A DNA stretch of 64,000 bases from Candidatus Iainarchaeum sp. (GCA_026397015.1 JAPLVR010000003.1:276134-340133); one strand, 5' to 3'; shown: positions 47,125 through 64,000, counted from the stretch's first letter. Numbers and translations are program-made. Notes: a model not told the origin generated them from the sequence alone.

Positions 47125-49215
47125 TTATGCTGAAAGTTGCCTTGCTAACTGAAGAGAAACGGCCTTTCCGAATATTGCCTCAACCTTTGAAAGATTTTTC
47201 TTAATCTCCGAAGGTTTTGTGATGCCCGCATTGAAAAGCCTTCTCGCACGCACCCTTCCGATTCCCTTCAACTGCACAAGGGAAAGCAGTTCTTCTTTAA
47301 CGCCGTACTTCGCGCGGTCGGAAAGCTTTTTTGCCGGAATCAAATGATGTTCAAGTCCTAAAACTTTTGAAAGCTCTATTGTTGAATATGCGAGCCATTC
47401 AATTATCCGGGTTTTTCCGAAAAGGGTTCCGGGAAGAACGCCATACTTTTCAAAAAGCTCCTGCTCGCGCTTTTCCTCAATCCACTGCTCAAGCATCATC
47501 GCGGAAAAAAATTTGTTTGTTGATTCGGGTTCGAACAAAAGTTTTTCCTGCGAAAAGGGCACTTCAAAAAAGCGGGAATTTATTTCCTCCGAAATAATCG
47601 GCTCAATTTTTTTAGGGGTATTCAGCCACGGGGAAAATTCCATACAATTCGCCCATGCAAAAAGATAGGAAAAAGGGGTGAAAGTTTTTTTGACGCGGAG
47701 AGCCCGTATCAGGGAGTAGGCGCTTTCGGGATCGAGGAACAAATCGGAAACGCGCTTGCCTAATTGAGTGGGCTCGTAGCGGGCCAGCATCGGATTCATG
47801 CTTCCGCTCTTTTTTACGAAACCGAATTCCTCCAAATCGTTTATTATTCCCATTATTTTTTCAAGGAGTGCAGACATTTCCCCGAATTGCTTTGCGTAAA
47901 AGGTTTTTGAGAAAAAAGATCCGGCGCTCTTCAGGTCATAAACATAACGTATTGCAACCAAACCCAAAATATGGGTGCGCAAAATAGGGATAATTCCCAG
48001 TTGAGAGTTCACCGGTTCGGGCAGGCCGTTGATGTAATCTTCCATGTACAAATCTTTTTGTGTTTCGCTGTTTGCGAAAACAATGCTTTTTCCTTCCTTT
48101 GAAAATTTTGGACGACCTGAACGCCCCGACATCTGCTTGAATTCTCGAACTGAGATTAGTTCCATTCCGTATTTTTCGAAGCGGTAAAGGCTTGGAATCA
48201 ATACTATGTCAGCTGGAGAATTTATTCCGGCGGCAAGTGTTGTCGTGGCAACAATTATTTTTATCAATCCGTTTCTAAAATTTTCTTCCACAAGCGAGCG
48301 CTGTTTTTGAATCAGGCCTGCATGGTGGAACGCAATCCCGTTCTTAATTGCTTCCCCCAAAGAAATGCACTGTTCGGTGGGCTGCTCCAAAAAAGAAATC
48401 GCTTCCAAAGAAATTTTTTCAAGCTTCGGCTTTTCTTTTTCGCACAATTTCTTGGACACTGATTCCGACAACTTTTTTGCAGTTGTTTCAGTGCGCTTAC
48501 GCGCGTTCATAAAAATCAGAATTTGTTTTCCCTGCACAAGCGCGTCGTCGACAATTTTTTCGAAGTCGCCTTCCTCAACAGAATCATCGTTAAATTCCAC
48601 AATTTCATTGTAACCCACGCCTTCTTTCAATTTCACCGGACGGAAACTGCTTTCCACCAGCTCGGCATCAAGCCAATTCGAAATTTCTTTCGCATTTGGA
48701 ATGGTGGCGCTCAGTGCCAGGACCTTCAGCTGCGGAATGAGCTGCCTCAATTGAGTAATCGTTATTTCAAGCACCGGCCCCCTGTCGGAATCAATCTCGT
48801 GTATTTCATCAACAATCAGGCAGCCGATTTCTTTCAGCCATTCAGCATCGTGCCTTATCAGCGAAGCGAGCTTTTCATACGTGGTGAAAATCACGTCAAA
48901 CTTTTTCAAATAGGAGCTGCTCGAATCCAAGTCCCCTGTGGAAAGCGCGAACTTGAGTTCGGAATATTTTTTCTTGAAATCGGAGTAGTGTTCGCTTGCA
49001 AGCGCGCGCAACGGACAGGTGTAAATAACTTTTTTTCTGTTGTTGAACGCCTGCTCAAGCATAAATAATTCGGCAATAATCGTTTTCCCTGAAGCGGTGG
49101 GCGCGGAAACCACTAAATTTTTTTCAAATTTTTTTTCAATGCAAAGTTTCTGCATTTCGTTGAAATCAGAAAAACCGTTTGCTTCAAGCACCCTTTTTGC
49201 AACATCGATTTTCAT
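47125..49215 (-). CDS. Ski2-like/Hel308 family DNA helicase
   Basis: VVSAPTASGKTIIAELFML (motif I), LIVDEIHEIDSDRGP (DEIH), SATIPNA, HHAGL, and a C-terminal HhH-like end (GIGRVRARRLFNAGI). ATG 49215; the track start is TTG 49230. Confidence 0.85.
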   Translation of the reverse strand: MKIDVAKRVLEANGFSDFNEMQKLCIEKKFEKNLVVSAPTASGKTIIAELFMLEQAFNNRKKVIYTCPLRALASEHYSDFKKKYSELKFALSTGDLDSSSSYLKKFDVIFTTYEKLASLIRHDAEWLKEIGCLIVDEIHEIDSDRGPVLEITITQLRQLIPQLKVLALSATIPNAKEISNWLDAELVESSFRPVKLKEGVGYNEIVEFNDDSVEEGDFEKIVDDALVQGKQILIFMNARKRTETTAKKLSESVSKKLCEKEKPKLEKISLEAISFLEQPTEQCISLGEAIKNGIAFHHAGLIQKQRSLVEENFRNGLIKIIVATTTLAAGINSPADIVLIPSLYRFEKYGMELISVREFKQMSGRSGRPKFSKEGKSIVFANSETQKDLYMEDYINGLPEPVNSQLGIIPILRTHILGLVAIRYVYDLKSAGSFFSKTFYAKQFGEMSALLEKIMGIINDLEEFGFVKKSGSMNPMLARYEPTQLGKRVSDLFLDPESAYSLIRALRVKKTFTPFSYLFAWANCMEFSPWLNTPKKIEPIISEEINSRFFEVPFSQEKLLFEPESTNKFFSAMMLEQWIEEKREQELFEKYGVLPGTLFGKTRIIEWLAYSTIELSKVLGLEHHLIPAKKLSDRAKYGVKEELLSLVQLKGIGRVRARRLFNAGITKPSEIKKNLSKVEAIFGKAVSLQLARQLSA

Positions 49216-49233
49216 CAAACCAGCTTCCAAAAA

Positions 49234-50061
49234 TCAGAAATAAAATTTTTTTATCTGGGCGCGGACAATTTCCTCGTCCCCGGGATTTGTTACCCCAAAC
49301 CACTTATCACGGGTTTCAATTTTTTTCAACGAAATATTTTTTCTTTCAACTAATGCTCCGACTGAATTTGAAATGGCTGTTTCCGCGTTCTGGTCGTCTT
49401 TGTTGGCTTCCTTGAAGTCGACCAAAATTTTTTCAAAGAGCCCTAAAATTTCCGGCTGGAAACCAAAAATAAGCATGTTTGTCAGAGAGTTTTCGCTCAA
49501 TCCGCTTTCTTTTAAATTCGATTTTTCTATGCCAAAAAATTCTTTTACTTCAACAATATTTCCTTTCGCATCCGCAAAAATTATTCCCCTGTTCACTTTC
49601 CCATTTTCAGGAATGACATCGCCTAACCTGTGAACTACTGCTGCATTGGATTTATTTTTCGAAAGGAAGTCATAAAGCAACTTGAAAGTTTTTTCCCCGT
49701 AAATGTCGTCGCCTGTGCAGACGACAAAAGATTCTTTTATGTTTTCCTTTGCGGAAAGCATAGCATCAAGCGTGCCCCAAGGCTTTCCTCTCTTTGAATG
49801 GTCGAATGTTTGTTTCGCGTAAAAAACCGGCACACCCTTGTAATTGTTCCCGAATTTTTCCTTGAAAGGCTTTTCGGTTTTTTCGCCCACGACGAAAATT
49901 ATTTTGCCAAACGGTGATTTCAATGCCTGGTTGAGGGAAAACTCAATCAGTGTTTCCCCACTCGGCCCGACGCGCGCGAACTGCTTCATCCTGCCGCCGA
50001 AGCGGCTTGAAACGCCTGCGACCAAAAAAACAAGCGCAACTCCCTTCCCCAAATTGAACAC
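49234..50061 (-). CDS. Sugar-phosphate nucleotidyltransferase family protein
   Basis: LVAGVSSRFGG (GxGxRF-type), KPWGTLDA, GDDIY and a C-terminal WFGVTNPGDEE block. Specific substrate not assignable. Confidence 0.65.
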   Translation of the reverse strand: MFNLGKGVALVFLVAGVSSRFGGRMKQFARVGPSGETLIEFSLNQALKSPFGKIIFVVGEKTEKPFKEKFGNNYKGVPVFYAKQTFDHSKRGKPWGTLDAMLSAKENIKESFVVCTGDDIYGEKTFKLLYDFLSKNKSNAAVVHRLGDVIPENGKVNRGIIFADAKGNIVEVKEFFGIEKSNLKESGLSENSLTNMLIFGFQPEILGLFEKILVDFKEANKDDQNAETAISNSVGALVERKNISLKKIETRDKWFGVTNPGDEEIVRAQIKKFYF

Positions 50062-50156
50062 CGATACAAATTAATATTGCAAAAGAATTTTTGAAGGAAA
50101 ATGTTTATGAAACCCCCTCAATGGACTGTAACTTCTGCTCCCGCCCACCTAAAAAT

Positions 50157-50477
50157 TTAATCCTCTTTCAGGGAAGCGAATTCGAAAGCCTTTTGAAGCG
50201 CAAGAATCGCTTTCGGCAAATCATTCATTCGGAAGGAATTGGTTTTTTTCCACTCTTCGCCTTTCTTGTAGCTGCGCTCAATCGTTGTTGTAAAAAACTT
50301 GTCCCCTTTTTTGGACTCGTTCTCCCAAACTGCCACATCAATTGTTCCAATCTTCAATTTTTTCACCGGCTTCACAAAAACACCTCTCGCAGAAATTGAA
50401 TCTGCAAAATAATTGCGAGAGTTTTTGTTTTTAAATGCAGAGCCAGCATCCGTGCCGGTGGAAAAAAATTTATCCAA
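50157..50477 (-). CDS. Hypothetical small protein, possibly a PC4/YdbC-like ssDNA-binding fold
   Basis: IGTIDVAVWENESKKGDKFFTTTIERSYKKGEEWKKTNSFRMNDLPKAILALQKAFEF has the beta-sheet plus C-terminal helix pattern of PC4-like proteins. By eye only. Confidence 0.3.
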   Translation of the reverse strand: MDKFFSTGTDAGSAFKNKNSRNYFADSISARGVFVKPVKKLKIGTIDVAVWENESKKGDKFFTTTIERSYKKGEEWKKTNSFRMNDLPKAILALQKAFEFASLKED

Positions 50478-50519
50478 AAAAATTGGGAAAAAAAGAAGTA
50501 AAAATTTATGGAAAAAAAA

Positions 50520-51161
50520 TTATTCTCTCGCCCATCTCTGGATTTCTTTCAAGGCTTTTTCGGTTTTTTCTATTTCCAAAACTTTTTTTTCAAGGCTGTC
50601 GATTTCTTTCTGCGATGCCGCCATCCTGAAACCCTGCAAATCATCGGCATACCTTGCAACCTTCTTGTTTTTTCTGTAGGCGATTGAAGTGCTTACTGTT
50701 TCCGTAAGCTGTTTTCTGTAATCCAAATCCGTTACGAACATTTTCACCATCGGTTTCCAGCGGTCATCGCCGACAAGATGCGCGGGCAGCTTTACTTTTT
50801 CAGCGTCCTTTTTGTAATCGGAGTCGGAAAGGACTTTTGCCATGTGCTGCCAGTAAAGCGGCTCCTTCAGTTTTTTTAACTGCTGAATCTGGTGGTAAAG
50901 AGAAGCGGAAGCGTATTTCAGCCTCCAATCGCCAAGCTTGCCGGAATAAATTTTTTTCTTGTCACGCAACTCTTTTATTTTTCTGTCAAGAACCAAATAG
51001 CTCGGATAGGTTAGCTTCGGCCACTTGCCACCAATGTCGTATGCTTTTATCACGCCGCCGGAAGAAAAGTATTCTTTTAATGCGTCCTTCCTTTCGCCCT
51101 TTTTCGGGAGTTTTGGAAACGTCTTGTCAAAGCTCTCCAAAGAGGCAATTACTTTATCCAT
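50520..51161 (-). CDS. Hypothetical basic Trp-rich protein, 213 aa
   Basis: Long uninterrupted ORF with native-looking codon usage. No family recognised. Confidence 0.5.
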   Translation of the reverse strand: MDKVIASLESFDKTFPKLPKKGERKDALKEYFSSGGVIKAYDIGGKWPKLTYPSYLVLDRKIKELRDKKKIYSGKLGDWRLKYASASLYHQIQQLKKLKEPLYWQHMAKVLSDSDYKKDAEKVKLPAHLVGDDRWKPMVKMFVTDLDYRKQLTETVSTSIAYRKNKKVARYADDLQGFRMAASQKEIDSLEKKVLEIEKTEKALKEIQRWARE

Positions 51162-51292
51162 AAAATCACAATAGGCTCAACCAGCAAATTTCATATTAGC
51201 AAGTTTTTGATTATAATAGAGAGCAGGGCTAATATTTAAAATATGCTACTTGAAAGTATTTATTAGAAGGTTAATTATCTAGGTGATTTTTT

Positions 51293-51628
51293 TTGTTTCC
51301 GGGCGGAATAAATCCGAAGCAGATGGGAAAAATGATGCGGCAAATGGGCATCAAGAGCGAGGATCTAGAAGCGGAAGAGATAGTAATAAAATTGAAGAAC
51401 GGAAAAAAACTTATTTTCAAAGAGCCGCAGGTTCAAAGCATCGAAATGCAGGGAACGAAAACCTATACGGTAATTGGAAATCCTTCGGAGGAAAGCGGCG
51501 TTCCTGAGGAAGATGTGAAGATGGTTGCGGAGCAAACCGGTGCTTCAAAAGAAAAAGCAAAAAAGGCTTTGGAAGAAAGCAACGGGAATATTGCGGAAGC
51601 GATAATGAAATTAAAGGAAAAAGAGTAG
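51293..51628 (+). CDS. nac: Nascent polypeptide-associated complex protein (NAC + UBA), TTG start
   Basis: (TTG)FPGGINPKQMGKMMRQMGIKSEDL...VQSIEMQGTKTYTVIG...EDVKMVAEQTGASKEKAKKALEESNGNIAEAIMKL. SD AGGTGA at 51281-51286. Confidence 0.9.
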   Translation: MFPGGINPKQMGKMMRQMGIKSEDLEAEEIVIKLKNGKKLIFKEPQVQSIEMQGTKTYTVIGNPSEESGVPEEDVKMVAEQTGASKEKAKKALEESNGNIAEAIMKLKEKE

Positions 51629-51728
51629 TTAGTGTGAACTAAATTGTTCAGAAAATTAATTAGCTCGAATCAAATCCAACAAAAAAGTAATTCGCACAAA
51701 TTAGGCTAATTTTTGAAAATAAAAAAAA

Positions 51729-53846
51729 TTACTCGGGCGGGCGGACCTTCCAAATAAATCCTGTTCTGGACGTGAAATTTGTGTCATCAAATGAAGCATC
51801 ACTACTCCATGCCTCTCCGACTATATACACATAACCTGAAGAATCAAGCGCGATTCCATTAGGGTAATCAGAATCTGCTCCGCCGCCCTGTTTCGCCCAG
51901 TCCAGATTGCCGCTGGAATCAAACTTTGCGACGAGCACATCAAACGAACCGTACGCTCCAAATTGTTCTTCTCCTCCGATTGTAAGCGTTCCTGCGAATC
52001 CGTACGTTACATACACGTTCTCAGAAGAATCGACTGCAAGTGATTTTGTACCCCCGCCATAGGTTAGCATGCCGATCAATAAATCCGAATCCATTACTTT
52101 TGCCCACTGCCAGTTTCCAGAACTGTCAAGCTTTGCCAAAAACATGGCTTTGCCGCCATCGGAAGAGCTTATCTCGATACTGCCGAAAGTCGCCGTTTCG
52201 GTGAATTGCCCGAGAACATATACTCCGCCTGATTCCCCGACAACGACATCATACACCGAACCGGCAGAGGCCTGCGCAACCCACCCCCAATTGCCATCAG
52301 TATTAATTTTTCCAACAAAAACACTGCCATCATAGGCATTCAAGTCAAACGCATCAAACAGCACACTATCGCCAAAAGTGCCCGTTACATATAAGTTGCC
52401 TGAACTGTCTATGTCAATGCTCACGCCCCCATCAACAGACACTCCGCCATCCCTTCTTGCCCAAACCCAGTTGCCATCAGAATCAAGTTTTGAGACAAAA
52501 ATATCTCTGTCATCTTCGCCTTCAACAGCCAGCAAATTTGTATCCCCGAATAATGCATTGGGCCCAAAAGTTCCAGTTAAATAAGTATTGCCGGAAGCGT
52601 CAACAACACACTTGCCGCCATATACGCCGTGGTTTGCAAACAAATATGAGCCGACATAGGGGTTTCTTCCCGACTGCTCTGCCCACAGCCAATTTCCACC
52701 AGAATTTAATGTAGCCGAATATATGTCCGTAACATCGTCTTCGTAAGCTTGCAACATCACACCATCGAAAAATGCCGATCCATAAAATCCACCGCAAGTA
52801 TGTATTTTGCTTGATGAATCAACCTGCGGCCTGCTAGAAACAACACTTTCATTTGTCCCATACGAAGTATTTGCCCACACCCAGTTGCTTCCGTTACTAT
52901 CAAGTTTTGCTATCGCGGCACCCTGATCACACGCTGGATCTGTATGGGTTGCGGTCAGATTGATGCTCCCGAATGACATTGAATCAGTATATGTTGCAGT
53001 CACGAAAATATTGCCGCTTGAATCAACAAACACTCCGTTTCCGGTGCCATCAAAACCTTTCGCAAAATAAATCGGTGGCGCAGGTGCGGCATACGTTACG
53101 CTCCACGGCCCGTTGTTGCTGTCCGCCCAATTATTGTTGCCGTCAATACAATTAACATTCCACTCATAAACCCCTTCTTCGCCGAACGAAACGCTAAAAG
53201 AATCAAAAGGCGCGCTGGAATCCGTTTGGTCAACAACTCCGCCAATAATAAGCTTACAATTCGAAACCCCTACATCATCACTCACAAAATAAACAAAATT
53301 AACATCCCCGTCCTCATCAACACTCTCATCCGAAGGAGAAACCAAAGAAACAACTGGCGAAGTCACATCTATAAAAACATCAGGAGTACAATTCACAACA
53401 AACTCGCCCGACCCTGCAATGATTTTGGTAAGTCCATGCTGGTCAATGTAAATAATATTTATTTTGTAGCCGTGCTCGTTGCCTGTGCAGGCAGGCAAAT
53501 TGGAAACGCTTATTGCTGCATCGCTGCCCACAGGAACCTTTGTGATTGTAAGGTTTTTGTCCTCGCCGTCAATATTTACGCCAACAATTGTTATATCATC
53601 TGCGCTATTATTACTAAACTTGAAAATTGCATCCCCCTTGGAATCAGCAACAGATTCAACAATACTCACATCCTGCGAAGACCAAACCAACTGAGAATTA
53701 TCCTTCGTAAGCCCTGGAGCAGAATCAATAAAACCAGAAATCAAAGAAATAACAACCAAACTTATGACAACTATTATCGCCAAAAGAACCACATATTCAA
53801 TCGTTCCCTGGGCGCGCACCGGCCTTCCTCCACTCATTTTACGCAT
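51729..53846 (-). CDS. Class III (type IV pilin-like) signal peptide protein with an Ig-like domain and an SBBP-type beta-propeller
   Basis: MRKMSGGRPVRAQG|TIEYVVLLAIIVVISLVVISLISG matches the archaeal prepilin motif. About 12 alternating half-repeats follow, of the types DSSGN[IL]YVTGTF and D[SG]GNW[VQ]WA[RK]. Confidence 0.7.
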   Translation of the reverse strand: MRKMSGGRPVRAQGTIEYVVLLAIIVVISLVVISLISGFIDSAPGLTKDNSQLVWSSQDVSIVESVADSKGDAIFKFSNNSADDITIVGVNIDGEDKNLTITKVPVGSDAAISVSNLPACTGNEHGYKINIIYIDQHGLTKIIAGSGEFVVNCTPDVFIDVTSPVVSLVSPSDESVDEDGDVNFVYFVSDDVGVSNCKLIIGGVVDQTDSSAPFDSFSVSFGEEGVYEWNVNCIDGNNNWADSNNGPWSVTYAAPAPPIYFAKGFDGTGNGVFVDSSGNIFVTATYTDSMSFGSINLTATHTDPACDQGAAIAKLDSNGSNWVWANTSYGTNESVVSSRPQVDSSSKIHTCGGFYGSAFFDGVMLQAYEDDVTDIYSATLNSGGNWLWAEQSGRNPYVGSYLFANHGVYGGKCVVDASGNTYLTGTFGPNALFGDTNLLAVEGEDDRDIFVSKLDSDGNWVWARRDGGVSVDGGVSIDIDSSGNLYVTGTFGDSVLFDAFDLNAYDGSVFVGKINTDGNWGWVAQASAGSVYDVVVGESGGVYVLGQFTETATFGSIEISSSDGGKAMFLAKLDSSGNWQWAKVMDSDLLIGMLTYGGGTKSLAVDSSENVYVTYGFAGTLTIGGEEQFGAYGSFDVLVAKFDSSGNLDWAKQGGGADSDYPNGIALDSSGYVYIVGEAWSSDASFDDTNFTSRTGFIWKVRPPE

Positions 53847-53986
53847 AAAAATCAATTGGCGGCGTTCATCGCTTAACAATTAGAAGGCGTTATTGTTTAT
53901 ATTATTATCTTGACCATTTTTCCAACGCGCATAGTATAGAATATAGGTTTCACTGTGTGTCATAAGACCGAACATGCCGTAGCGCC

Positions 53987-55354
53987 TTATTCGCTTTCCT
54001 CGCCGGAAATTCCGGAAATTTTTTCCCTTTGAACCGTGAGGGTGAGAAGAAGATTCAGGCCATCACCTATTTTGTGGCCGGGATTCACTATTGCGGTGAA
54101 GCTCCCCTTTTCAAAAGGAAGCTCCTTTCCAAACGAATTAACCATTAGGCCGTTCATGTCGAAATTCGCGTCCTGTTTCAATGAAACGGAAAAGCCTTTT
54201 GAGGAAAGAATCGTTTCAAGTACGCCTGCATTTTCGGAAGAGAGAATTTCGCCGAAGACAACCTCTTTTGGATACGAAATTTGAATTGCTGCATTTTTGC
54301 CCTTGAAATAATTTCGAATTGAGGAAATAATGGAATCGATTTTTTCTTTCTGGAAACCTGCTGAAATCGAATTGTCTTCGCCCGCTTCCGCCGAGGAAAC
54401 GCCTGCAAAACCCTTAATCATATCGATGTCAGAAGAAGACACTGTGTAATTTTTGTCAACCGAAATTGTTAGGGAATTTTGAAGGGAAAAAATTGCAGGC
54501 CGCGCATTTACGCCGGCGGCGACCAATTGTGATTTCAACGCATTTTCATCGACATAAGAATTCAAATCTCTTTCGCCTTCATATGAAATTTTTTCCCCGA
54601 GAGAAATTATGTTTAATGAAGCGTTTTGGGAAAAATCTTTTGATGAACCTGTATTGTTTGAGGACTCGAGCAGCTCGGCATTAACAAGGGTTTTTCCCTG
54701 CAGCTGAATCGTGCCGCCGACAACGATTGAATCATTCGGAATCGTTGAAAGTTCAACCCACGCCGTTTGCGCCTTTCCTTCAAAAGAAAAATTCACGTCC
54801 ATATTTAGGTCTGTGTTGCGCAGAATCATCGGTTCCTTCGGAACGGAAATTGTAACGCTTTTCTTTACCTCATATGTTCCCTGTTCGCCGGAAAAAAAGC
54901 CCGATGCGAGAATTTTTTCTGCCACCGCGCTTGGAGAAGCATTTTTCTCTATTGAAATTTCGGCGAAGTAAACCCACTCGCCTTCCGGAAAGCCCGTTTG
55001 TGTTTTGAAATTTGAAATTGAAACGGACTTAACGCCGTCTATTCCTTTCACAAACTTGTCGATTTTGTAGATATCGGATTCCTCTGTAATCGCGGCAAAT
55101 CTGACGAAGTTGAGTTCCTTCAAAACAGTTGTTTCAAAACTGGCGGTATAATTGAATTTTGATGTTTCAACAGTTGTTGGCGTTTCTTCCTGATTATTTT
55201 TGTTTGCATTCTTTTCGGTTGAAAGGATGGCTCCCGCTATCATGCTGCCGCCCATTACGACTACAACGAGGATGCCGAGCGCCTGCAACATCTTTTCTTT
55301 TTTCTTTTCGTCCAATTCAACCACTTCAGAACAACCTTTAAAAAGATTCCACAA
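53987..55354 (-). CDS. Hypothetical N-terminally anchored extracellular protein, 455 aa
   Basis: One TM (ALGILVVVVMGGSMIAGAIL), then Ser/Asn-rich sequence of beta-rich character. Directly upstream of, and co-oriented with, the pilin-like propeller gene. ATG 55291 is an alternative start. Confidence 0.55.
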   Translation of the reverse strand: MWNLFKGCSEVVELDEKKKEKMLQALGILVVVVMGGSMIAGAILSTEKNANKNNQEETPTTVETSKFNYTASFETTVLKELNFVRFAAITEESDIYKIDKFVKGIDGVKSVSISNFKTQTGFPEGEWVYFAEISIEKNASPSAVAEKILASGFFSGEQGTYEVKKSVTISVPKEPMILRNTDLNMDVNFSFEGKAQTAWVELSTIPNDSIVVGGTIQLQGKTLVNAELLESSNNTGSSKDFSQNASLNIISLGEKISYEGERDLNSYVDENALKSQLVAAGVNARPAIFSLQNSLTISVDKNYTVSSSDIDMIKGFAGVSSAEAGEDNSISAGFQKEKIDSIISSIRNYFKGKNAAIQISYPKEVVFGEILSSENAGVLETILSSKGFSVSLKQDANFDMNGLMVNSFGKELPFEKGSFTAIVNPGHKIGDGLNLLLTLTVQREKISGISGEESE

Positions 55355-55458
55355 CCCAATCCTGCAATCGGCTGATTTATTTTTAATTTGGAAAGGATTA
55401 TAAAACGTGGGAATTACAGCGGGTGTTTGGGTTGGAAACCGAAAAAGAAAAAATTAAA

Positions 55459-56244
55459 ATGAATAAAAAAATGGTGAAAATAAATTTTACCGGAAGGGAG
55501 CTTACCACCCAAAGCATATTTGATACTACCATAGAGAAGGAAGCGAAGGAAGCTGAAATTTTTGATGAAAAAAGAAAGTATGGCGGGATAACTGTAATCC
55601 TCGGCGAAAAGGAAATGCTGCCCCTTGTTGAGAAAGAGCTTGAAACCATGAAAAATGGGGAGGAGAGAGTTGTTAAAATCGGGCCGAAAGACGGCTTCGG
55701 GGAAAGAAAAACCGACTTGGTAAGGGTAATGCCGATTCTTGATTTTCAAAAACAAAAGTTGAATCCTTTTCCTGGAATGCTGATAAGGGCGGAGCAGTAC
55801 ATCGGAAAGGTGCAAAGTGTAAGCGGAGGAAGGGTGCGTGTCGATTTCAATCATCCGCTTGCAGGGCGCGAACTGGAATACAGAATAAAACTGGAGGAAG
55901 AAGTGAAGGGCAAGGAAAAAATCTGCGAAGAAATTTTTGAAAAATATTATTCGATGGTTCCGGGCGCAAAAAAAGAAATCAAAGATGAAAGCTTATACAT
56001 AACAATTCCTTCTCCCCTTTACAAAAATTTGGAGGGAGTAAATAAAAGCGTTGAAACTCTTGGAAAAGAAATGGGAATAAAAATTTCATTTGCAGAGGGG
56101 AAGGAAAAGCCGGCAGAAGCAAAAAAGGATGAGGGGAAAACTAAAAAAGAAAAGGCATCCGAAAAAAAATCGAGAAATAAAAAATTGTTGGGAAAAGAAC
56201 CAAAAAAAGAAAAAAAGGCCGAAGAAGAAAAGGGCGAGAAATAG
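55459..56244 (+). CDS. FKBP-type peptidyl-prolyl isomerase (SlyD-like with IF insert) with a Lys/Glu-rich tail
   Basis: VKINFTGRELTTQSIFDTT...GERKTDLV...GKVQSVSGGRVRVDFNHPLAGRELEYRIKLEE. Tail of about 50 aa (KEKPAEAKKDEGKTKKEKASEKK...). Confidence 0.85.
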   Translation: MNKKMVKINFTGRELTTQSIFDTTIEKEAKEAEIFDEKRKYGGITVILGEKEMLPLVEKELETMKNGEERVVKIGPKDGFGERKTDLVRVMPILDFQKQKLNPFPGMLIRAEQYIGKVQSVSGGRVRVDFNHPLAGRELEYRIKLEEEVKGKEKICEEIFEKYYSMVPGAKKEIKDESLYITIPSPLYKNLEGVNKSVETLGKEMGIKISFAEGKEKPAEAKKDEGKTKKEKASEKKSRNKKLLGKEPKKEKKAEEEKGEK

Positions 56245-56309
56245 CTTTTTAAAGGTTTCACTAGCCAAATCTGATATTAGAGCTAATTGCGAATTCTTTC
56301 TGTGATAAA

Positions 56310-57050
56310 ATGAATTATTATAGGGAAGCAGAGGGGCTGCCAATAAGCCTCATAAGTGAAAGGGCACAATTCAATCCGCCGAGAGGGGCGATAAGTGCGA
56401 CAAACGCGAACAGCCACCAAGATGACAGGAAAAGCGGAACGACCACGCTTGGATTGGCGGGAAAGGATTTTGTTGTTCTTGCCGCGGACCAAAGGGGGGT
56501 AATGGGAAACATTGCAACCGAAGCGAATGTGCCGAAAATTTATCCGATAACAAAATACGTTGCAGTAACTGTAGCGGGCGCAGTCGGAGACGCGCTGGCA
56601 GTGATAAGGTTTTTGAAGGCACAGGCGAATTTGTACGAAATCGAGAGGGGAACAAAAATGACTCCGAAAGCGTTGACAACGCTGCTCTCAAATGTGCTTA
56701 ACAATAACAGGTATTACCCTTTTATTTTCCAGCCGATAATTGCGGGTTTTGTGAAGGTGCCTGACATTTATGAAGCGACCCCTTACGGCTGCGTGGTTCA
56801 AAAAGACGATTACGCGATAACGGGTTCGGGAACAACATTCGCAATGACGACGCTTGATTCCGAATACAAAAAAGGGATGACAAAAGAAGAGGCGATTGCG
56901 CTCGCTGTGAAGGCGGTAAGCGCGGCAAAGCACAGGGATATTTACAGCGGCGGAGAGAGCGTAACAGTTGCTGTGATCGATGCTAACGGGTATAGAGAAA
57001 TTGACAGAAAAGAGATTGACAAAATAATACAGAAGCTGAAATTCAACTAA
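56310..57050 (+). CDS. psmB: Proteasome subunit beta with an unusually long (~48 aa) propeptide
   Basis: ...RKSG|TTTLGLAGKDFVVLAADQRGVMG is the N-terminal Thr active-site context. No in-frame ATG/GTG/TTG closer to the Thr that I could find. Confidence 0.9.
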   Translation: MNYYREAEGLPISLISERAQFNPPRGAISATNANSHQDDRKSGTTTLGLAGKDFVVLAADQRGVMGNIATEANVPKIYPITKYVAVTVAGAVGDALAVIRFLKAQANLYEIERGTKMTPKALTTLLSNVLNNNRYYPFIFQPIIAGFVKVPDIYEATPYGCVVQKDDYAITGSGTTFAMTTLDSEYKKGMTKEEAIALAVKAVSAAKHRDIYSGGESVTVAVIDANGYREIDRKEIDKIIQKLKFN

Positions 57051-57094
57051 TTAAAAAATTGCGAAGCAAACAAGCGGCAAACTTAAAGAATTTT

Positions 57095-57110
57095 TTTGCG
57101 GACACGCAAA
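57095..57110 (+). terminator. Hairpin after psmB within a T-rich context
   Basis: TTTGCG-GACA-CGCAAA, preceded by TTTTTTT (57091-57097). Archaeal termination mainly uses oligo-T, so this is tentative. Confidence 0.3.
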
Positions 57111-57122
57111 TTAACTTAATTG

Positions 57123-57236
57123 ATTTAACAAACTGGATTACCAAAATTTATTTAACAAATTAGATTACCGAAGTTGATTTAACAAATTGAATCATCAAAA
57201 TTTATTTAACAAATTGAACAACTGAAATTGATTTTT
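57123..57236 (+). repeat. Tandem 27-bp repeat, 4 full units plus a partial fifth, ending at the aCPSF1 start codon
   Basis: ATTTAACAAA begins at 57123, 57150, 57177 and 57204 (exact 27-nt phase). The units are atttaacaaactggattaccaaaattt, atttaacaaattagattaccgaagttg, atttaacaaattgaatcatcaaaattt and atttaacaaattgaacaactgaaattg. The fifth unit, atttttATG, carries the start codon at 57237. Unit endings alternate, giving a 54-nt super-period. Confidence 0.85.
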
Positions 57237-59141
57237 ATGCCTCAGAAAATTGAAATACTAAAGCATATTGAGGAACAGCTCAAAGAAACCCTGCCGGACA
57301 GGTGCGAGGTTTCAAAAATAGAAATGGAAGGGCCCGAAGTTGTAATCTATACAAAAAATCCTTCCGCGTTTTTTGGAAACGACAACTTCGTTTCAAAAAC
57401 GGCGTTCGCACTCAAAAAAAGAATTAACATAAGAACCGATAAAAGCCTGCTCGGGCCGGAAGAACAAACCAGAAAACAGGTTTTCGAATTGGTGCCGAAG
57501 GAAGCCGAGGTGAAGGACATTTATTTCAACGCGCCGTTTTCACAGGTCGTAATTGAGGCAGTGAAAAAAGGGATTGTAATAGGAAAAGGCGGGGAAATTT
57601 CAAAAAAAATAATTATGGAAACCGGCTGGACGCCTGAAATTCTGAGGGCGCCGACAAGCGATTCGGAAATATTGAAGGGTATAAGAAGGCACCTCCACAC
57701 GCACTGCGACGAAAGAAAAAAATTCCTGTTAAAAACTGCGGAAGACATTTACACCCGGCCAAGCAAGGCGCAGCATGAATGGGTGAGGTTCAACGCGCTT
57801 GGGGGGTTTAGAGAGGTGGGAAGAAGCTGCATGCTGGTTGAAACGCCGCACACAAGATTGATGATGGATGCGGGAATAAACATGAGCCAGGATGACCCTT
57901 ATCCTTACCTTGATGCGCTTGGATATCCTCTCACAGAACTTGATGCTGTTGTGATTTCACACGCGCACATCGACCACTCGGGATTACTGCCTTACCTTTA
58001 CAGATTGGGATTTGAAGGGCCGACATACTGCACGGAACCGACAAGAGATTTGATGACGCTGCTGCAATTTGATTACATTGATGTTGGGATTACGAATGAA
58101 AAGGAAGCCCCTTTCGGAGAAAGGGACGTGAAAAATGCGTTGCTCCACACGATTCCGAGGGATTACAGGGAAGTTACCGACATCGCGCCCGACATGAGAT
58201 TGACTCTGCACAATGCGGCGCATATTTTAGGTTCAAGTTCCGTGCATTTGAACATCGGAGAAGGCGCGCACAACCTTGTTTACAGTGCGGACATAAAATA
58301 CGGTTTTACAAGATTGTTCAACAATCTTGACATAAAGTATCCGAGAATTGAGACGCTTGTAATTGAAAGCACCTACGGTTCAAAGGACGCAATACAAATG
58401 CCGAGGGAAATCGCGGAGCAGAAGCTGCTTGAAATAATACAGGAAACGACGCAATTCGGCGGCAACGTTTTGATTCCGGTTTTCGGAGTCGGAAGGGGGC
58501 AGGAAATCGCGCTTGTAATTGAAAATTTTTACAAGCAGGGAATTTTAACTGACCAAAACAAAATTTACATTGACGGAATGATAAGAGAAGCTTCTGCAAT
58601 ACACACTGCGTACCCTGAACAATTGAGGAAAAGCCTTGAGAGAAGAATACTTACAAACGATTCTCCATTTGATTCGCCGATATTCAAGGTTGCGAAACGC
58701 GAGGACAGGGAGAAAATAATTAAGGAAAGCGGGGCGGTAATAATTTCCACATCGGGAATGATGCAAGGGGGCCCAATAATTGAATATTTTAACGCAATGG
58801 CCGAGAACCCGTCAAACACTTTGGTGTTCGTTGGTTATTTGGCTGAAGGGACGCTTGGAAGGAGAATACAGCAGGGAATGCGAAGCCTGCCGATAATACA
58901 GAACGGCAAAACAAAAAAATTGGAAGTTAAAATGAAAATTGAAACGGTTGACGGATTTTCCGGGCACAGCGACTTCAACCAGCTTTCTGCTTATGTCGGC
59001 GCATTGAAGCCGAGCCCGAAAAGAATTTTGGTTGGGCACGGGGACCCCGCGAGAAGCGTCGAATTTTCGAGGTACCTCGCCGGAAGGTACAAAATCAATT
59101 CCACTTCAATCAGAAACCTCGACGCGGTGAGGCTCAAATAA
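57237..59141 (+). CDS. aCPSF1/FttA: KH domains plus metallo-beta-lactamase/beta-CASP ribonuclease
   Basis: N-terminal KH-like domains (VIGKGGEISKKI), HAHIDHSG (HxHxDH), a beta-CASP region, and C-terminal GFSGHSD...VGHGD. Confidence 0.9.
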   Translation: MPQKIEILKHIEEQLKETLPDRCEVSKIEMEGPEVVIYTKNPSAFFGNDNFVSKTAFALKKRINIRTDKSLLGPEEQTRKQVFELVPKEAEVKDIYFNAPFSQVVIEAVKKGIVIGKGGEISKKIIMETGWTPEILRAPTSDSEILKGIRRHLHTHCDERKKFLLKTAEDIYTRPSKAQHEWVRFNALGGFREVGRSCMLVETPHTRLMMDAGINMSQDDPYPYLDALGYPLTELDAVVISHAHIDHSGLLPYLYRLGFEGPTYCTEPTRDLMTLLQFDYIDVGITNEKEAPFGERDVKNALLHTIPRDYREVTDIAPDMRLTLHNAAHILGSSSVHLNIGEGAHNLVYSADIKYGFTRLFNNLDIKYPRIETLVIESTYGSKDAIQMPREIAEQKLLEIIQETTQFGGNVLIPVFGVGRGQEIALVIENFYKQGILTDQNKIYIDGMIREASAIHTAYPEQLRKSLERRILTNDSPFDSPIFKVAKREDREKIIKESGAVIISTSGMMQGGPIIEYFNAMAENPSNTLVFVGYLAEGTLGRRIQQGMRSLPIIQNGKTKKLEVKMKIETVDGFSGHSDFNQLSAYVGALKPSPKRILVGHGDPARSVEFSRYLAGRYKINSTSIRNLDAVRLK

Positions 59142-59884: not shown

Positions 59885-61015
59885 TCAATTTTCTAAACGG
59901 ACACACCGAGCACCGTAGGTGCCGCCATCGCTCTTACTGCCGAAGCCAAGGGTGCCGCCATTACTGGAATACAATCTGAACGCGCTGCCCGGACTCGACG
60001 GAACACTCGTACTAGACCAATAAAAAATACAACCGGTAAACCCGGAATAACAAGTGCCTGTCTGATTATCATATATCAACCCAATCTCAATCTTAGTAGG
60101 CAAATGCCAATCATCATAACCAGCCAAAGACAAATTATTACAATAATCCAAAGCACCCTGCCAAGTAACCGTAGAACCACTACTGCCTTTTTGCCACATC
60201 AAACCACTACTCAAATCACTCAAAGTAAAATTATCACTATTAACCCTCCAAACCCTCGCATAACTAGCACCATAAATATTACCATCCTCGCCAGTACCAC
60301 TACAAGACCTAGGAGCACCGCCAGTATCCCAACAACCAGTCTGGCCAGTCATAGTTTGATAAAAAGAACCATTAAAACCAAAAATACTTGTTCCTAATTT
60401 AATCCTACTAGCCCTCAAATCAGGATCAACTGTACTCAAAGTATTCGCATCATAATAACCAGCACTCAAAACCGCAGAAGAAGGACTCAAATACTGAGTC
60501 GGCAAAGAACCATGCAACAAAGTACTAGAATTACCATAAAAACTATACCCGCTCAAAACCTTATCCACAACAGCATTACCATCATAACTACAAGAACCAC
60601 CTTCTACCAAAGAACCATCAACACCAAAAATATTTACCCCTGATTTAATGTTTCCAACAACCAAATCAGGATCAACTGTATTCAAAGCAGTTGCGTCATA
60701 ACAACCAGCCGAAACATTTGTTGAAAGAGGATTCAAAGTTTGCGGACCACCACTGCAACTCGAACCACAACTACCCGGAACATTCCCTTTACATGAAACA
60801 GGATTTATTACTTCACAATTCGAGTCACTTGTCGGGCTGTCATAGCTGCAACTCTCAAAGCATTTTAATTTATCCAGTTCACTAGTTACCTCTTCTGGCT
60901 TTGGATTCGCAGAACTCCCAATACCCACTATCACTGCAATAACTATTGCTGCAACCACCACTGCCGCGCCAATTATCAGAAGGTATTCCACTGCCCCCTG
61001 CCCTTTTCTTCCCAT
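59885..61015 (-). CDS. Class III signal peptide protein with an internal duplicated module and a C-terminal DUF1566 (Lcl C-terminal, lectin-like) domain
   Basis: MGRKGQG|AVEYLLIIGAAVVVAAIVIAVIVG. Duplicated AG[CY]YDA..L.TVDPDL....IK.G..IFG..GS module. DDWHLPTKIEIGLIYD...YWSSTS...ARCVRLEN is the DUF1566 pattern. Confidence 0.7.
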   Translation of the reverse strand: MGRKGQGAVEYLLIIGAAVVVAAIVIAVIVGIGSSANPKPEEVTSELDKLKCFESCSYDSPTSDSNCEVINPVSCKGNVPGSCGSSCSGGPQTLNPLSTNVSAGCYDATALNTVDPDLVVGNIKSGVNIFGVDGSLVEGGSCSYDGNAVVDKVLSGYSFYGNSSTLLHGSLPTQYLSPSSAVLSAGYYDANTLSTVDPDLRASRIKLGTSIFGFNGSFYQTMTGQTGCWDTGGAPRSCSGTGEDGNIYGASYARVWRVNSDNFTLSDLSSGLMWQKGSSGSTVTWQGALDYCNNLSLAGYDDWHLPTKIEIGLIYDNQTGTCYSGFTGCIFYWSSTSVPSSPGSAFRLYSSNGGTLGFGSKSDGGTYGARCVRLEN

Positions 61016-61049
61016 AAAAATCATAACTATGTCCAAAAAGCAATACTCG

Positions 61050-62901: not shown

Positions 62902-64000
62902 TCAACAATCAGGACACCAGCCACATTCACAACCATCAGTATCACCACACCCCGGGCGGCGCAAATAATTAAAACCACCAGAATAGCCGGTGTTGCTGTA
63001 ACAATACACGCCCTTGCCTATCTGATTGGAATCTGTGCTGGTCATCGTGCTGCCGGCAGGCGTGTAATAAAACTTTGCTGTAACCGCACGCCGCGCATTA
63101 TCCACACAGGGGAAAATCAGCCCACTACTCTTACCCATCCTATCCATCAAAAGCCCGGTGGTTTCCTCGGAATTAATATTAATATCCGGCGGGTCACGCG
63201 TGCATTTGTAATCATAATTCATATCCCCATTGCCAGTAGTTGCATCCCAACTAGCATAAGTAACGGTAGGCGCCTTCATCAAACCTTTCCAAGCCCCGCA
63301 AACATTACAACCCTCCCCACTCGGCCCAGTAGCCCTGATGCTCCCGTCATACATCCCGACCTGATTACCGTTAATATCCATCTTATTAACCTGCACCATG
63401 CTGTTAGAAATGTTCTTTATCAAGAACTGGATAATGCTGCCACTTTGGACACTTGGTAAAGAATTATAATCAATCCCGACCGCAGAAAAAATATGGAACG
63501 GCCAAAACTTCGCAGGGAAATAAAAAAAATCAGGGTCCTGAATATAATCAAACGCACCCTCATAACCGTTGCCCGAATACCGACTCTCCTTGCATGGAAT
63601 ATTAACATCGTCAAAAAACTGGGAAGAACCATCGGCGAAAACAAAATTAATATCAAGAACCTTCCAATAATTACCCCAAGAACCGATGCACCAGTCAGGC
63701 CAAGCGTCATCACTGAAAATCCCAATAGTCGCACCCGCGGAAACATAAGCCCTCGGCGGCAACGAGGTGCACGCAAACTGGCCATTAAGGTCCCCACCAG
63801 TAATATTCGAATCCTTGGGAGAAGCCCCCTGCAAATACGATAAATTAATCACCTTACCCAAACTATCGGGCAACGAACTACCACAACCACCTGTCTTCGG
63901 ATCTGAAACAGAATCTGAAATTTTATAATTCTGTGTCACAGTGCAGGAAGTGGAAGTTGCATTGCACATGTTGCCACTAGTCCCAGTCTTACCACCGCAG
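62902..64000 (-). CDS. Cys-rich, Gly/Asn/Asp-rich secreted-type protein; 5' end lies beyond the window
   Basis: The frame stays open upstream of the annotated ATG (63969) to the window edge (...CGGKTGTSGNMCNATSTSC...). Ends ...RRPGCGDTDGCECGWCPDC*. No family recognised. Confidence 0.55.
   Translation of the reverse strand, partial: CGGKTGTSGNMCNATSTSCTVTQNYKISDSVSDPKTGGCGSSLPDSLGKVINLSYLQGASPKDSNITGGDLNGQFACTSLPPRAYVSAGATIGIFSDDAWPDWCIGSWGNYWKVLDINFVFADGSSQFFDDVNIPCKESRYSGNGYEGAFDYIQDPDFFYFPAKFWPFHIFSAVGIDYNSLPSVQSGSIIQFLIKNISNSMVQVNKMDINGNQVGMYDGSIRATGPSGEGCNVCGAWKGLMKAPTVTYASWDATTGNGDMNYDYKCTRDPPDININSEETTGLLMDRMGKSSGLIFPCVDNARRAVTAKFYYTPAGSTMTSTDSNQIGKGVYCYSNTGYSGGFNYLRRPGCGDTDGCECGWCPDC

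Follow-up and report, generated by a model that had tools for sequence, protein, structure and literature searches.

The DNA analysed here, called the window throughout, is a stretch of 64,000 nucleotides from Candidatus Iainarchaeum sp. (GCA_026397015.1 JAPLVR010000003.1:276134-340133), an archaeon of the DPANN lineage Iainarchaeota (Diapherotrites) whose assembly comprises 0.9 Mb in six contigs and is 85% complete. The gene under study occupies window positions 51729..53846 on the minus strand and encodes a modular type IV pilin, 705 amino acids long when translated from the ATG at 53846. From its N-terminus the product consists of a leader, a pilin module, an Ig-like domain and an SBBP beta-propeller.

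Leader, pilin module and cargo of the encoded protein

The reading frame runs uninterrupted from 51729 to 53879 and offers three candidate starts. Translation from the ATG at 53846 begins MRKMSGGRPVRAQGTIEYVVLLAIIVVISLVVISLISGF. The public gene call for the protein (P0003) uses a GTG at 53819, which yields MRAQG... and 696 amino acids and is preceded by a GGAGG 7 nt upstream, and the third candidate is a TTG at 53879. Because leaders in the pilin family span 3 to 56 residues, the ATG and the GTG are both plausible starts, and the conclusions below are unaffected by the choice between them. On the 5' side of the gene lies an A+T-rich spacer with TATA-like stretches (53880..53986, minus strand), which may, to judge from its sequence, contain the gene's own promoter.

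The N-terminus is of the type IV pilin or class III kind, as an earlier, sequence-only reading of this locus had proposed. The predicted leader (53811..53846) reads MRKMSGGRPVRA|Q from the ATG and MRA|Q from the GTG; it is short and positively charged with Ala at -1, and would be a substrate for a prepilin peptidase of family A24. The predicted mature N-terminus QGTIEYVVLLAIIVVISLVVISLISGFI (53727..53810) carries Glu at +5, a residue also found at this position in bacterial pilins, and a hydrophobic alpha-1 helix, the putative polymerisation stem, which AlphaFold modelled as a helix both in the full-length protein and in the module alone. Its first residues, QGTIEYVVL followed by LAIIVVISLVVISLISGF, match the motif QxSxExxxL with Thr replacing Ser, and in the EppA-processed Methanococcus proteins that carry this motif the Q is residue +1 (PMC2910488). 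Across 147 family representatives, for which the search pattern itself prescribed Q and E, the helix was near-invariant, the residue before Q was Ala in 116 and Gly in 31, and the residue at -2 was Arg or Lys in 77, with conservation dropping further upstream. Since the motif places Q at +1, the -1 position is always Ala or Gly, and Glu then falls at +5, we predict that cleavage probably occurs at RA|QGTIEY. This site lies two residues before the one named earlier, after Gly (AQG|TIEY), which is compatible with the sequence alone but less likely.

The Pfam model of the class III signal, PF04021, scored the target just under its cut-off of 23.7 bits (17.7 bits with hmmscan and 22.7 bits in a scan of the genome). 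That scan returned 17 sites at E <= 1; seven other sites reached the cut-off alone, an eighth did so with in-frame neighbours, and paralogues of the target were above threshold. On the Pfam model alone the signal of the target is sub-threshold, and it is the family evidence that carries it. The low score, together with the little information that hydrophobic helices hold, would suit an uncleaved type II signal-anchor membrane protein whose likeness to pilins comes down to a hydrophobic helix. We regard such a protein as extremely improbable here: Q-G-T-I-E-Y, Ala or Gly at -1 and Glu at 5 are kept in 147/150 representatives and a plain anchor needs none of them, paralogues pass PF04021, small members of the family lie in pilus operons, and the genome has two A24 peptidases.

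Behind the helix follows the globular body of the pilin (53382..53705), composed of a short helix and a seven-strand beta-sandwich with a conserved Cys120-Cys153 pair, the second Cys marking the module end. AlphaFold placed residues ~48-155 in this sandwich at a predicted local distance difference test score (pLDDT) of 93-98, and mean pLDDT values were 85.2 for the full-length protein (97-row alignment) and 90.5 for the module alone. Both models, in the numbering of P0003, have a helix that starts at ~4-6 and ends at 29-31, a second, short one at 39-47 and the seven-strand beta-sandwich at 51-145. When the genome was scanned for [AG]Q[GA][TSA][IV]E[YF] followed by a hydrophobic run, 13 open reading frames (ORFs) were retrieved, and 7 of them matched the target beyond the helix, over the ~110 residues that follow, with the shared pattern LxW..Q..I.D...D..G......N, then C.G...Y...Y, then C. 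One of these seven is a stand-alone pilin of 168 amino acids encoded at C3:5077-5583, immediately beside platform and ATPase genes. Residues 11-154 of the target aligned with it (33% identity, E 9e-11), and this small pilin stops one residue past the second conserved Cys, the one aligned with Cys153 of the target. On the sequence, a full pilin module (helix plus a beta-sandwich of ~110 amino acids) precedes the Ig-like domain, and the order is pilin, Ig, propeller. What led us to regard the pilin body as present is above all its homology in sequence to small pilins encoded in operons. The sequence-only reading had taken a normal ~15 kDa pilin body to be absent and the cargo to sit on a bare stem; the sandwich at ~48-155 and the end-to-end alignment with stand-alone pilins of 150-230 amino acids contradict this.

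Structure comparison was compatible with a pilin head but did not decide the matter. The best Foldseek matches of the module in the PDB included the AAP pilin of Sulfolobus acidocaldarius (8q30, E 1.4e-4), two Pyrobaculum structures (6w8u and 8fk7) and one from Sulfolobus islandicus (6nav), the E-values of all four falling between 1e-4 and 2e-3, and FlaF/FlaG and archaellins ranked lower. A sequence search of the N-terminal 170 amino acids against PDB chains gave only a chance match to an amylase (E 0.29), so the N-terminal part has no close solved relative.

A linker of ~10 residues separates Cys153, where the pilin module stops, from an Ig-like spacer of the Big_7 type (53088..53357, residues ~164-253), modelled as a sandwich with a Cys197-Cys233 pair at pLDDT 66-81. 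Big_7 (PF17957) scored 17.6 bits on the target, below its cut-off of 24.1, and 31.8 bits on the homologue P0117; the domain is Ig-like, as had been reported from the sequence, and its assignment to Big_7 is tentative.

The remainder of the protein (51744..53066, residues ~261-701) is a seven-bladed SBBP beta-propeller, which AlphaFold closed with high confidence (pLDDT mostly >85) and which is presumed to be the ligand-binding cargo. PF06739 (SBBP) matched it in four stretches (E 3.8e-14, 52.8 bits vs a cut-off of 20.5). Seven half-repeats of the form DSSGNxYVTG and six of the form DxxGNWxWA bring the count to 13, where about 12 had been seen before. The LipL53 SBBP family model NF047494 gave a partial match (129.5 bits vs a cut-off of 400), and the target is not a LipL53 equivalog; its N-terminus has no lipobox Cys and carries the class III signal instead. 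The nearest full-length relative was P0004, from a metagenome-assembled genome of the same genus (38% identity, 100% coverage), and the plan pilin-Ig-SBBP is common to P0015, P0117 and P0066. Other named best matches of the propeller were bacterial surface proteins, many of them with sorting domains of the type IX secretion system (T9SS).

The best solved match of the full-length model was the propeller of CylK, an alkylating enzyme (Foldseek E 1.4e-19, 21% identity), with designed, NHL and PQQ propellers next in rank. Lectin propellers were sought in the same full-length Foldseek search and none was found, and the ligand cannot be inferred from the matches. With CylK at the top, other propeller enzymes lower in the list and bacterial modular pilins with peptidase modules on record (PMC8179133), the propeller might be read as an extracellular enzyme on a pilin carrier, with CylK-like chemistry or hydrolase or lyase activity, in place of an adhesin. 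We consider this very unlikely. The likeness to CylK is that of a shared SBBP scaffold, and the separate N-terminal domain of CylK is missing in the target; most of the SBBP proteins found are surface proteins with T9SS sorting, PKD, Ig or S-layer domains; and the sister cargos are lectin- or adhesin-like (Laminin_G_3, Glug, Lcl_C).

The pilin family, its cargos and the pilus machinery

To define the family, residues 1-170 of the target were searched against 1.84 billion cluster representatives. At least 881 representatives matched at E <= 1e-3 and 255 at E <= 1e-10, all relatives coming from uncultured archaea, the named ones being Candidatus Iainarchaeum and Candidatus Forterrea. Among the best 150 the match begins within the first ~50 residues, so that the module is N-terminal; 147 of these have the motif, 42 are stand-alone pilins of <=260 amino acids and 68 exceed 500. 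The family to which this pilin head belongs has no Pfam model. In eight members (P0208, P0213, P0214, P0216, P0221, P0230, P0231 and P0242) we also observed a degenerate second copy of the motif (AQGTIEE..., without the hydrophobic run) 20-45 residues upstream of the true AQGTIEYL helix, which may be a duplicated leader or the product of an over-extended start call.

What follows the module is exchanged from one member to the next. The paralogue P0025 is 51% identical to the target over residues 4-253, that is, over pilin and Ig-like domain, and is unrelated from there on, with Glug repeats in the place of the propeller; another paralogue has Glug together with a ConA-like Laminin_G_3 domain, and one has a MopE motif. 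Among 82 long members the cargo included Glug in 19, Laminin_G_3 in 8, Lcl_C in 6 and SBBP in 2, and further Gly_rich_2, beta-helix, DUF5018, NosD, InlB-type repeats, PQQ, pentraxin and C1q. The gene fits the definition of a modular pilin, a complete pilin module joined by a short linker to non-pilus domains; some family members consist of the module by itself, and others attach different cargos to it. Both the architecture and the variety of cargos correspond to what has been described for bacterial modular pilins (PMC8179133).

A profile of the module matched all 38 genomes of the family (2-32 matches each, median 14, at E <= 1e-5), counts that take in other pilin classes as well because the profile contains the generic helix. 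Many of these matches lay in open frames of 450-1381 amino acids. In the present genome 7 of the 13 profile matches have the body type of the target, and at least nine pilin-type genes have pilin bodies that match no Pfam family. Two helix classes were distinguished. The target and the C3 pilin share the class 1 helix AQGTIEYxxLLAIIVVI, and the pilins of contig C1 share the class 2 helix GQG[AS][IV]EYLLIIGAA with an Lcl_C protein encoded in the window at 59885-61024. With both classes in one genome, each modular pilin may have a particular machine to which it is matched.

The machinery itself was found by scanning the genome. Two Peptidase_A24 genes are present (C1:130735-131865 and C1:198318-199133), both with the two Asp motifs visible; one has the archaeal C-terminal domain, and one of the two lies inside a pilus locus. 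Five matches to T2SSE-type ATPases exceeded the Pfam cut-off, and there are three sets of T2SSF platform genes. The sequence-only reading had named a genome free of prepilin peptidase or pilus machinery as one outcome that would refute its proposal, and the genome has both. The genes are grouped in a locus at C1:121-133 kb (ATPase, two platform genes, small Cys-rich pilins and peptidase), a locus at C3:1.9-10.1 kb (an 807-aa ATPase, two platform genes, the 168-aa pilin and divergent minor-pilin-like genes) and a third ATPase/platform locus at C5:73.5-76.8 kb. None of the pilus ATPase, platform or peptidase matches falls within the window, as had been stated before. Small members of the family follow an ATPase of the C3 type and two platform genes in this genome and in three other genomes (L084, L093 and L095).

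Divergent from the C3 pilus operon, five co-oriented genes on the plus strand (C3:1871-5014) encode products of 141-291 amino acids that look like a short leader followed by a hydrophobic helix, for example ARAQISIEFMM... and KSKGFLISLDAFL...; from their sequences they are probably the minor-pilin set of the C3 machine.

The upstream gene and neighbouring modular pilins

Upstream of the pilin gene and co-oriented with it lies P0002 (P2; 53987..55354, minus strand), which encodes 455 amino acids with one N-terminal hydrophobic helix. Pfam, NCBIfam and a PDB profile search returned nothing significant, in keeping with the earlier description of a protein with no recognisable domain. Only two relatives were found in a large protein database. 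A six-frame genome search, by comparison, gave a match in 34 of the 38 genomes of the Genome Taxonomy Database (GTDB) family, in single copy; where a genome gave two match rows, as six did, the additional row corresponds to the C-terminal part of that one gene. The homologues have 250-450 amino acids and always adjoin FKBP divergently, and the extra C-terminal part of the long forms, to which P0002 of this genome belongs, is missing in some relatives.

Mapping of 33 loci of relatives of window positions 47125-59141 (L104-L136), which with this genome makes 34, revealed a conserved backbone. In it aCPSF1, PSMB and FKBP point one way and P2 the other; NAC follows on the strand opposite to P2, and h213, a PC4-like gene, an NTP-transferase gene and Hel308 follow in the direction of P2. 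FKBP, a proteasome subunit, NAC and a helicase are the neighbours of the target. A gene with the pilin module occurred in the stretch from P2 to the PC4-like gene at 13 of the 34 loci: three (this genome, its congener G037 and G020) have it between P2 and NAC, five between NAC and h213 and four between h213 and the PC4-like gene, and one (G011) shows an inverted arrangement. The cargo lengths of these pilin genes are 255-742 amino acids, apart from one fragment of 62. Given a median of ~14 pilin matches per ~1-Mb genome, this is far above chance, and the stretch may be an insertion hot spot or the site of an ancestral gene that moved.

The sequence-only reading had described the pilin gene as paired with P0002. 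We considered two lines of support for this and rejected both. Synteny with GCA_041653195.1 extends to the whole neighbourhood, and a third relative has no pilin gene there. The proximity of pilin genes to P0002, above chance as it is, involves three sites, mostly beyond the opposite-strand NAC. In a 56%-identical relative, P2 abuts NAC with no pilin gene between them. The upstream gene is found in single copy in a fixed housekeeping neighbourhood, with a pilin gene directly after it at only 3 of 34 loci. Its location is independent of the pilin gene, and we therefore do not regard the two as a dedicated pair. P0002 is a lineage-conserved membrane-anchored protein, and the link of the pilin is to the region, not to P0002. 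In one and the same pair of genomes the target and P0004 are 38% identical, while P0002 and its orthologue are 58% identical, from which it follows that the surface adhesin evolves much faster than P0002.

Two further modular pilins are encoded on the minus strand of the window. The gene at 59885..61024 belongs to class 2 (GQGAVEYLLIIGAA...), passes the PF04021 cut-off with 30.0 bits and has a C-terminal Lcl_C (DUF1566) domain (PF07603, E 6.5e-18). Its N-terminus was observed to resemble those of the small pilins, rich in Cys, that the C1 pilus locus encodes. At 62905..64000 the window edge cuts a third gene, P0132, of which the C-terminal 365 of 666 amino acids lie inside (100% identity over 365 aa). 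Its pilin module is 40% identical to that of the target, and its Cys-rich cargo carries a MopE metal-binding motif. Outside the window the gene extends to about C5:341020, and a further family member of 222 amino acids is found at C5:341839.

Overall, the observations of the sequence-only reading on the ORF, the SBBP repeats, the Ig-like domain, the upstream ORF and the machinery-free window stood up; the absent pilin body did not, and PF04021 by itself left the class III signal below threshold. In its interpretation, the pilin-type N-terminus with an Ig/SBBP cargo was borne out, whereas the stem-only cargo, the cut after Gly and the gene pairing found no support.

Proposed display of the head and comparison with known systems

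Four things are direct observations: the domain anatomy, the module's homology to stand-alone pilins, the peptidases and machines in the genome and the conserved linkage of small members to one machine type. From these we consider the likely gene product to be a modular type IV pilin with an adhesin on display, built of a leader, a class III site, alpha-1, a pilin body, an Ig spacer and a seven-bladed SBBP propeller; the earlier idea of a pilus-displayed adhesin or receptor fits this evidence. The prepilin would insert into the membrane, and its leader would be removed by one of the two A24 aspartic prepilin peptidases. The pilin module would then be taken up by a type IV pilus machine and incorporated into a filament. 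The likely machine is the one whose ATPase and two platform genes lie at C3:5.7-10.1 kb and which has a small pilin of its own with this module. If bacterial modular pilins are a guide, the Ig-propeller head would end up on the filament, probably at its tip or sparsely along it, where it may bind a surface or host ligand in an adhesive role.

Several findings weigh against this reading. PF04021 misses the target, as described above, and the solved structure nearest to the propeller belongs to an enzyme and not to an adhesin. Against solved archaeal pilins, TM-scores reached only ~0.4, and subunits of the TRAP translocon ranked first, with a likeness to the module that is one of general plan, a beta-sandwich with a membrane helix; the modelled fold is consistent with a pilin head and not decisive. 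The target gene is far from any pilus machinery, no machinery was found within 6 kb at 72 of 78 related loci, and the large modular members lie scattered. Moreover, archaeal class III proteins like the sugar-binding proteins of Sulfolobus may form no long filaments (PMC2910488, PMC13705601).

The last two points would also suit a pilin-like anchor without a pilus, in which the leader is cleaved by an A24 peptidase and the protein, a surface receptor or adhesin, is held in the membrane by its helix or enters a short assembly like a bindosome or pseudopilus. Archaeal class III signals are known from non-pilin surface proteins such as the sugar-binding proteins of Sulfolobus, in which a long pilus has not been observed (PMC2910488, PMC13705601), and a head of 60 kDa would be difficult to accommodate along the shaft of a filament. 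Against such an anchor, the target retains an entire pilin head with homology to small pilins encoded beside ATPase and platform genes, neither a substrate-binding-protein (SBP) domain nor an ABC transporter is found nearby, and bacterial modular pilins with equally bulky modules do enter pili (PMC8179133). We hold the anchor to be unlikely, and prefer the pilus-displayed adhesin.

A broader proposal can be put forward only tentatively, and we regard it as possible yet doubtful: that one near-invariant pilin module serves as a universal carrier for a fast-turnover repertoire of grafted binding domains, which decide the hosts or surfaces that can be attached to. It is suggested by the occurrence of the module in 38/38 genomes, by the swapping of cargo after the module or after the Ig-like domain and by the varying insertion sites of pilin-module genes, which are found even inside strings of housekeeping genes. 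If it is true, the adhesins displayed by one pilus machine form a polymorphic set, and the whole would be a system of host range that can be likened to the cassettes of phage tail fibres or polymorphic adhesins.

The genomes of DPANN archaea are tiny, and a life attached to other cells is generally assumed for them, by means of which, to our knowledge, little is known. The minimal archaea considered here are probably episymbiotic, and the target gene offers an answer at the level of sequence, namely a pilus subunit with an added binding head. The lineage devotes a notable share of a ~1-Mb genome to modular pilins, with varied heads on one conserved stem. For annotation, a 'hypothetical SBBP repeat protein' becomes a predicted pilus adhesin, the prediction of its cleavage site is corrected and a false operon partner is removed.

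Class III signals on large non-pilin archaeal proteins were already known (PMC2910488, PMC13705601), divergent pilins have been noted in DPANN (PMC6393860), and a recent survey reports that type IV filament systems are widespread in the majority of archaeal phyla, DPANN and Asgard archaea being the exceptions (PMC13705601). Set against this exception, three ATPase/platform loci and at least nine pilin bodies unmatched in Pfam in a single DPANN genome indicate that current models may undercount such systems. Within the literature library searched, neither this pilin family nor any archaeal modular pilin was described. Modular pilins as such are known from bacteria, and what is most notable here is how extensively cargo is shuffled on a single carrier within a genome of ~1 Mb.

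Among known systems, the bacterial modular type IV pilins are well established (PMC8179133, PMC10191384), with PilB (vWA module) and PilC (ConA-like lectin module) of Streptococcus sanguinis as examples (Raynaud et al. 2021, PMC8179133). These and the target share a complete N-terminal pilin module, a short linker and a bulky non-pilus domain, many architectures on one carrier and a predicted role in adhesion by display on a filament, and the paralogue of the target with a ConA-like Laminin_G_3 module recalls S. sanguinis PilC. The target differs in being archaeal, in its QxSxExxxL signal with Q at +1 in place of the bacterial G|F/M-TLxE N-methylation motif (IPR012902), in a head that is an Ig-like beta-sandwich as in archaeal pilins and in its Ig and SBBP cargo; it is, further, known from sequence alone. 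The Epd pilins of Methanococcus maripaludis, processed by EppA (PF04021 / DUF361), likewise combine this N-terminal pattern (Q +1, Glu +5) with a dedicated A24 peptidase inside a pilus locus and a platform encoded by two separate genes. Epd pilins are small, however, whereas the target adds ~550 amino acids of domains and has a head without a Pfam model and a PF04021 score just under threshold.

The bindosome proteins of Sulfolobus (GlcS, AraS and TreS) resemble the target in carrying a large non-pilin cargo behind a class III signal and in their dispersed genes, and one machine may serve many such proteins (PMC13705601). Their solute-binding domain sits straight on the helix and ABC transporters are adjacent, whereas the target keeps a pilin head, has no SBP domain according to Pfam and NCBIfam and has no ABC transporter among its neighbours. 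PilY1/PilC tip adhesins of bacterial type IVa pili also present a large propeller adhesin on a pilus, with other domains that are modular (PMC8179133). PilY1 itself, in contrast, is a non-pilin that docks on minor pilins by way of a propeller of its own type (IPR008707), whereas the SBBP propeller of the target is covalently fused to the pilin. Finally, the bacterial SBBP surface proteins (T9SS cargo of Bacteroidota and LipL53 of Leptospira) and CylK belong to the same repeat family, with 30-41% identity over the propeller; the surface proteins are anchored or exported via T9SS sorting domains or lipoboxes, where the target uses a pilin.

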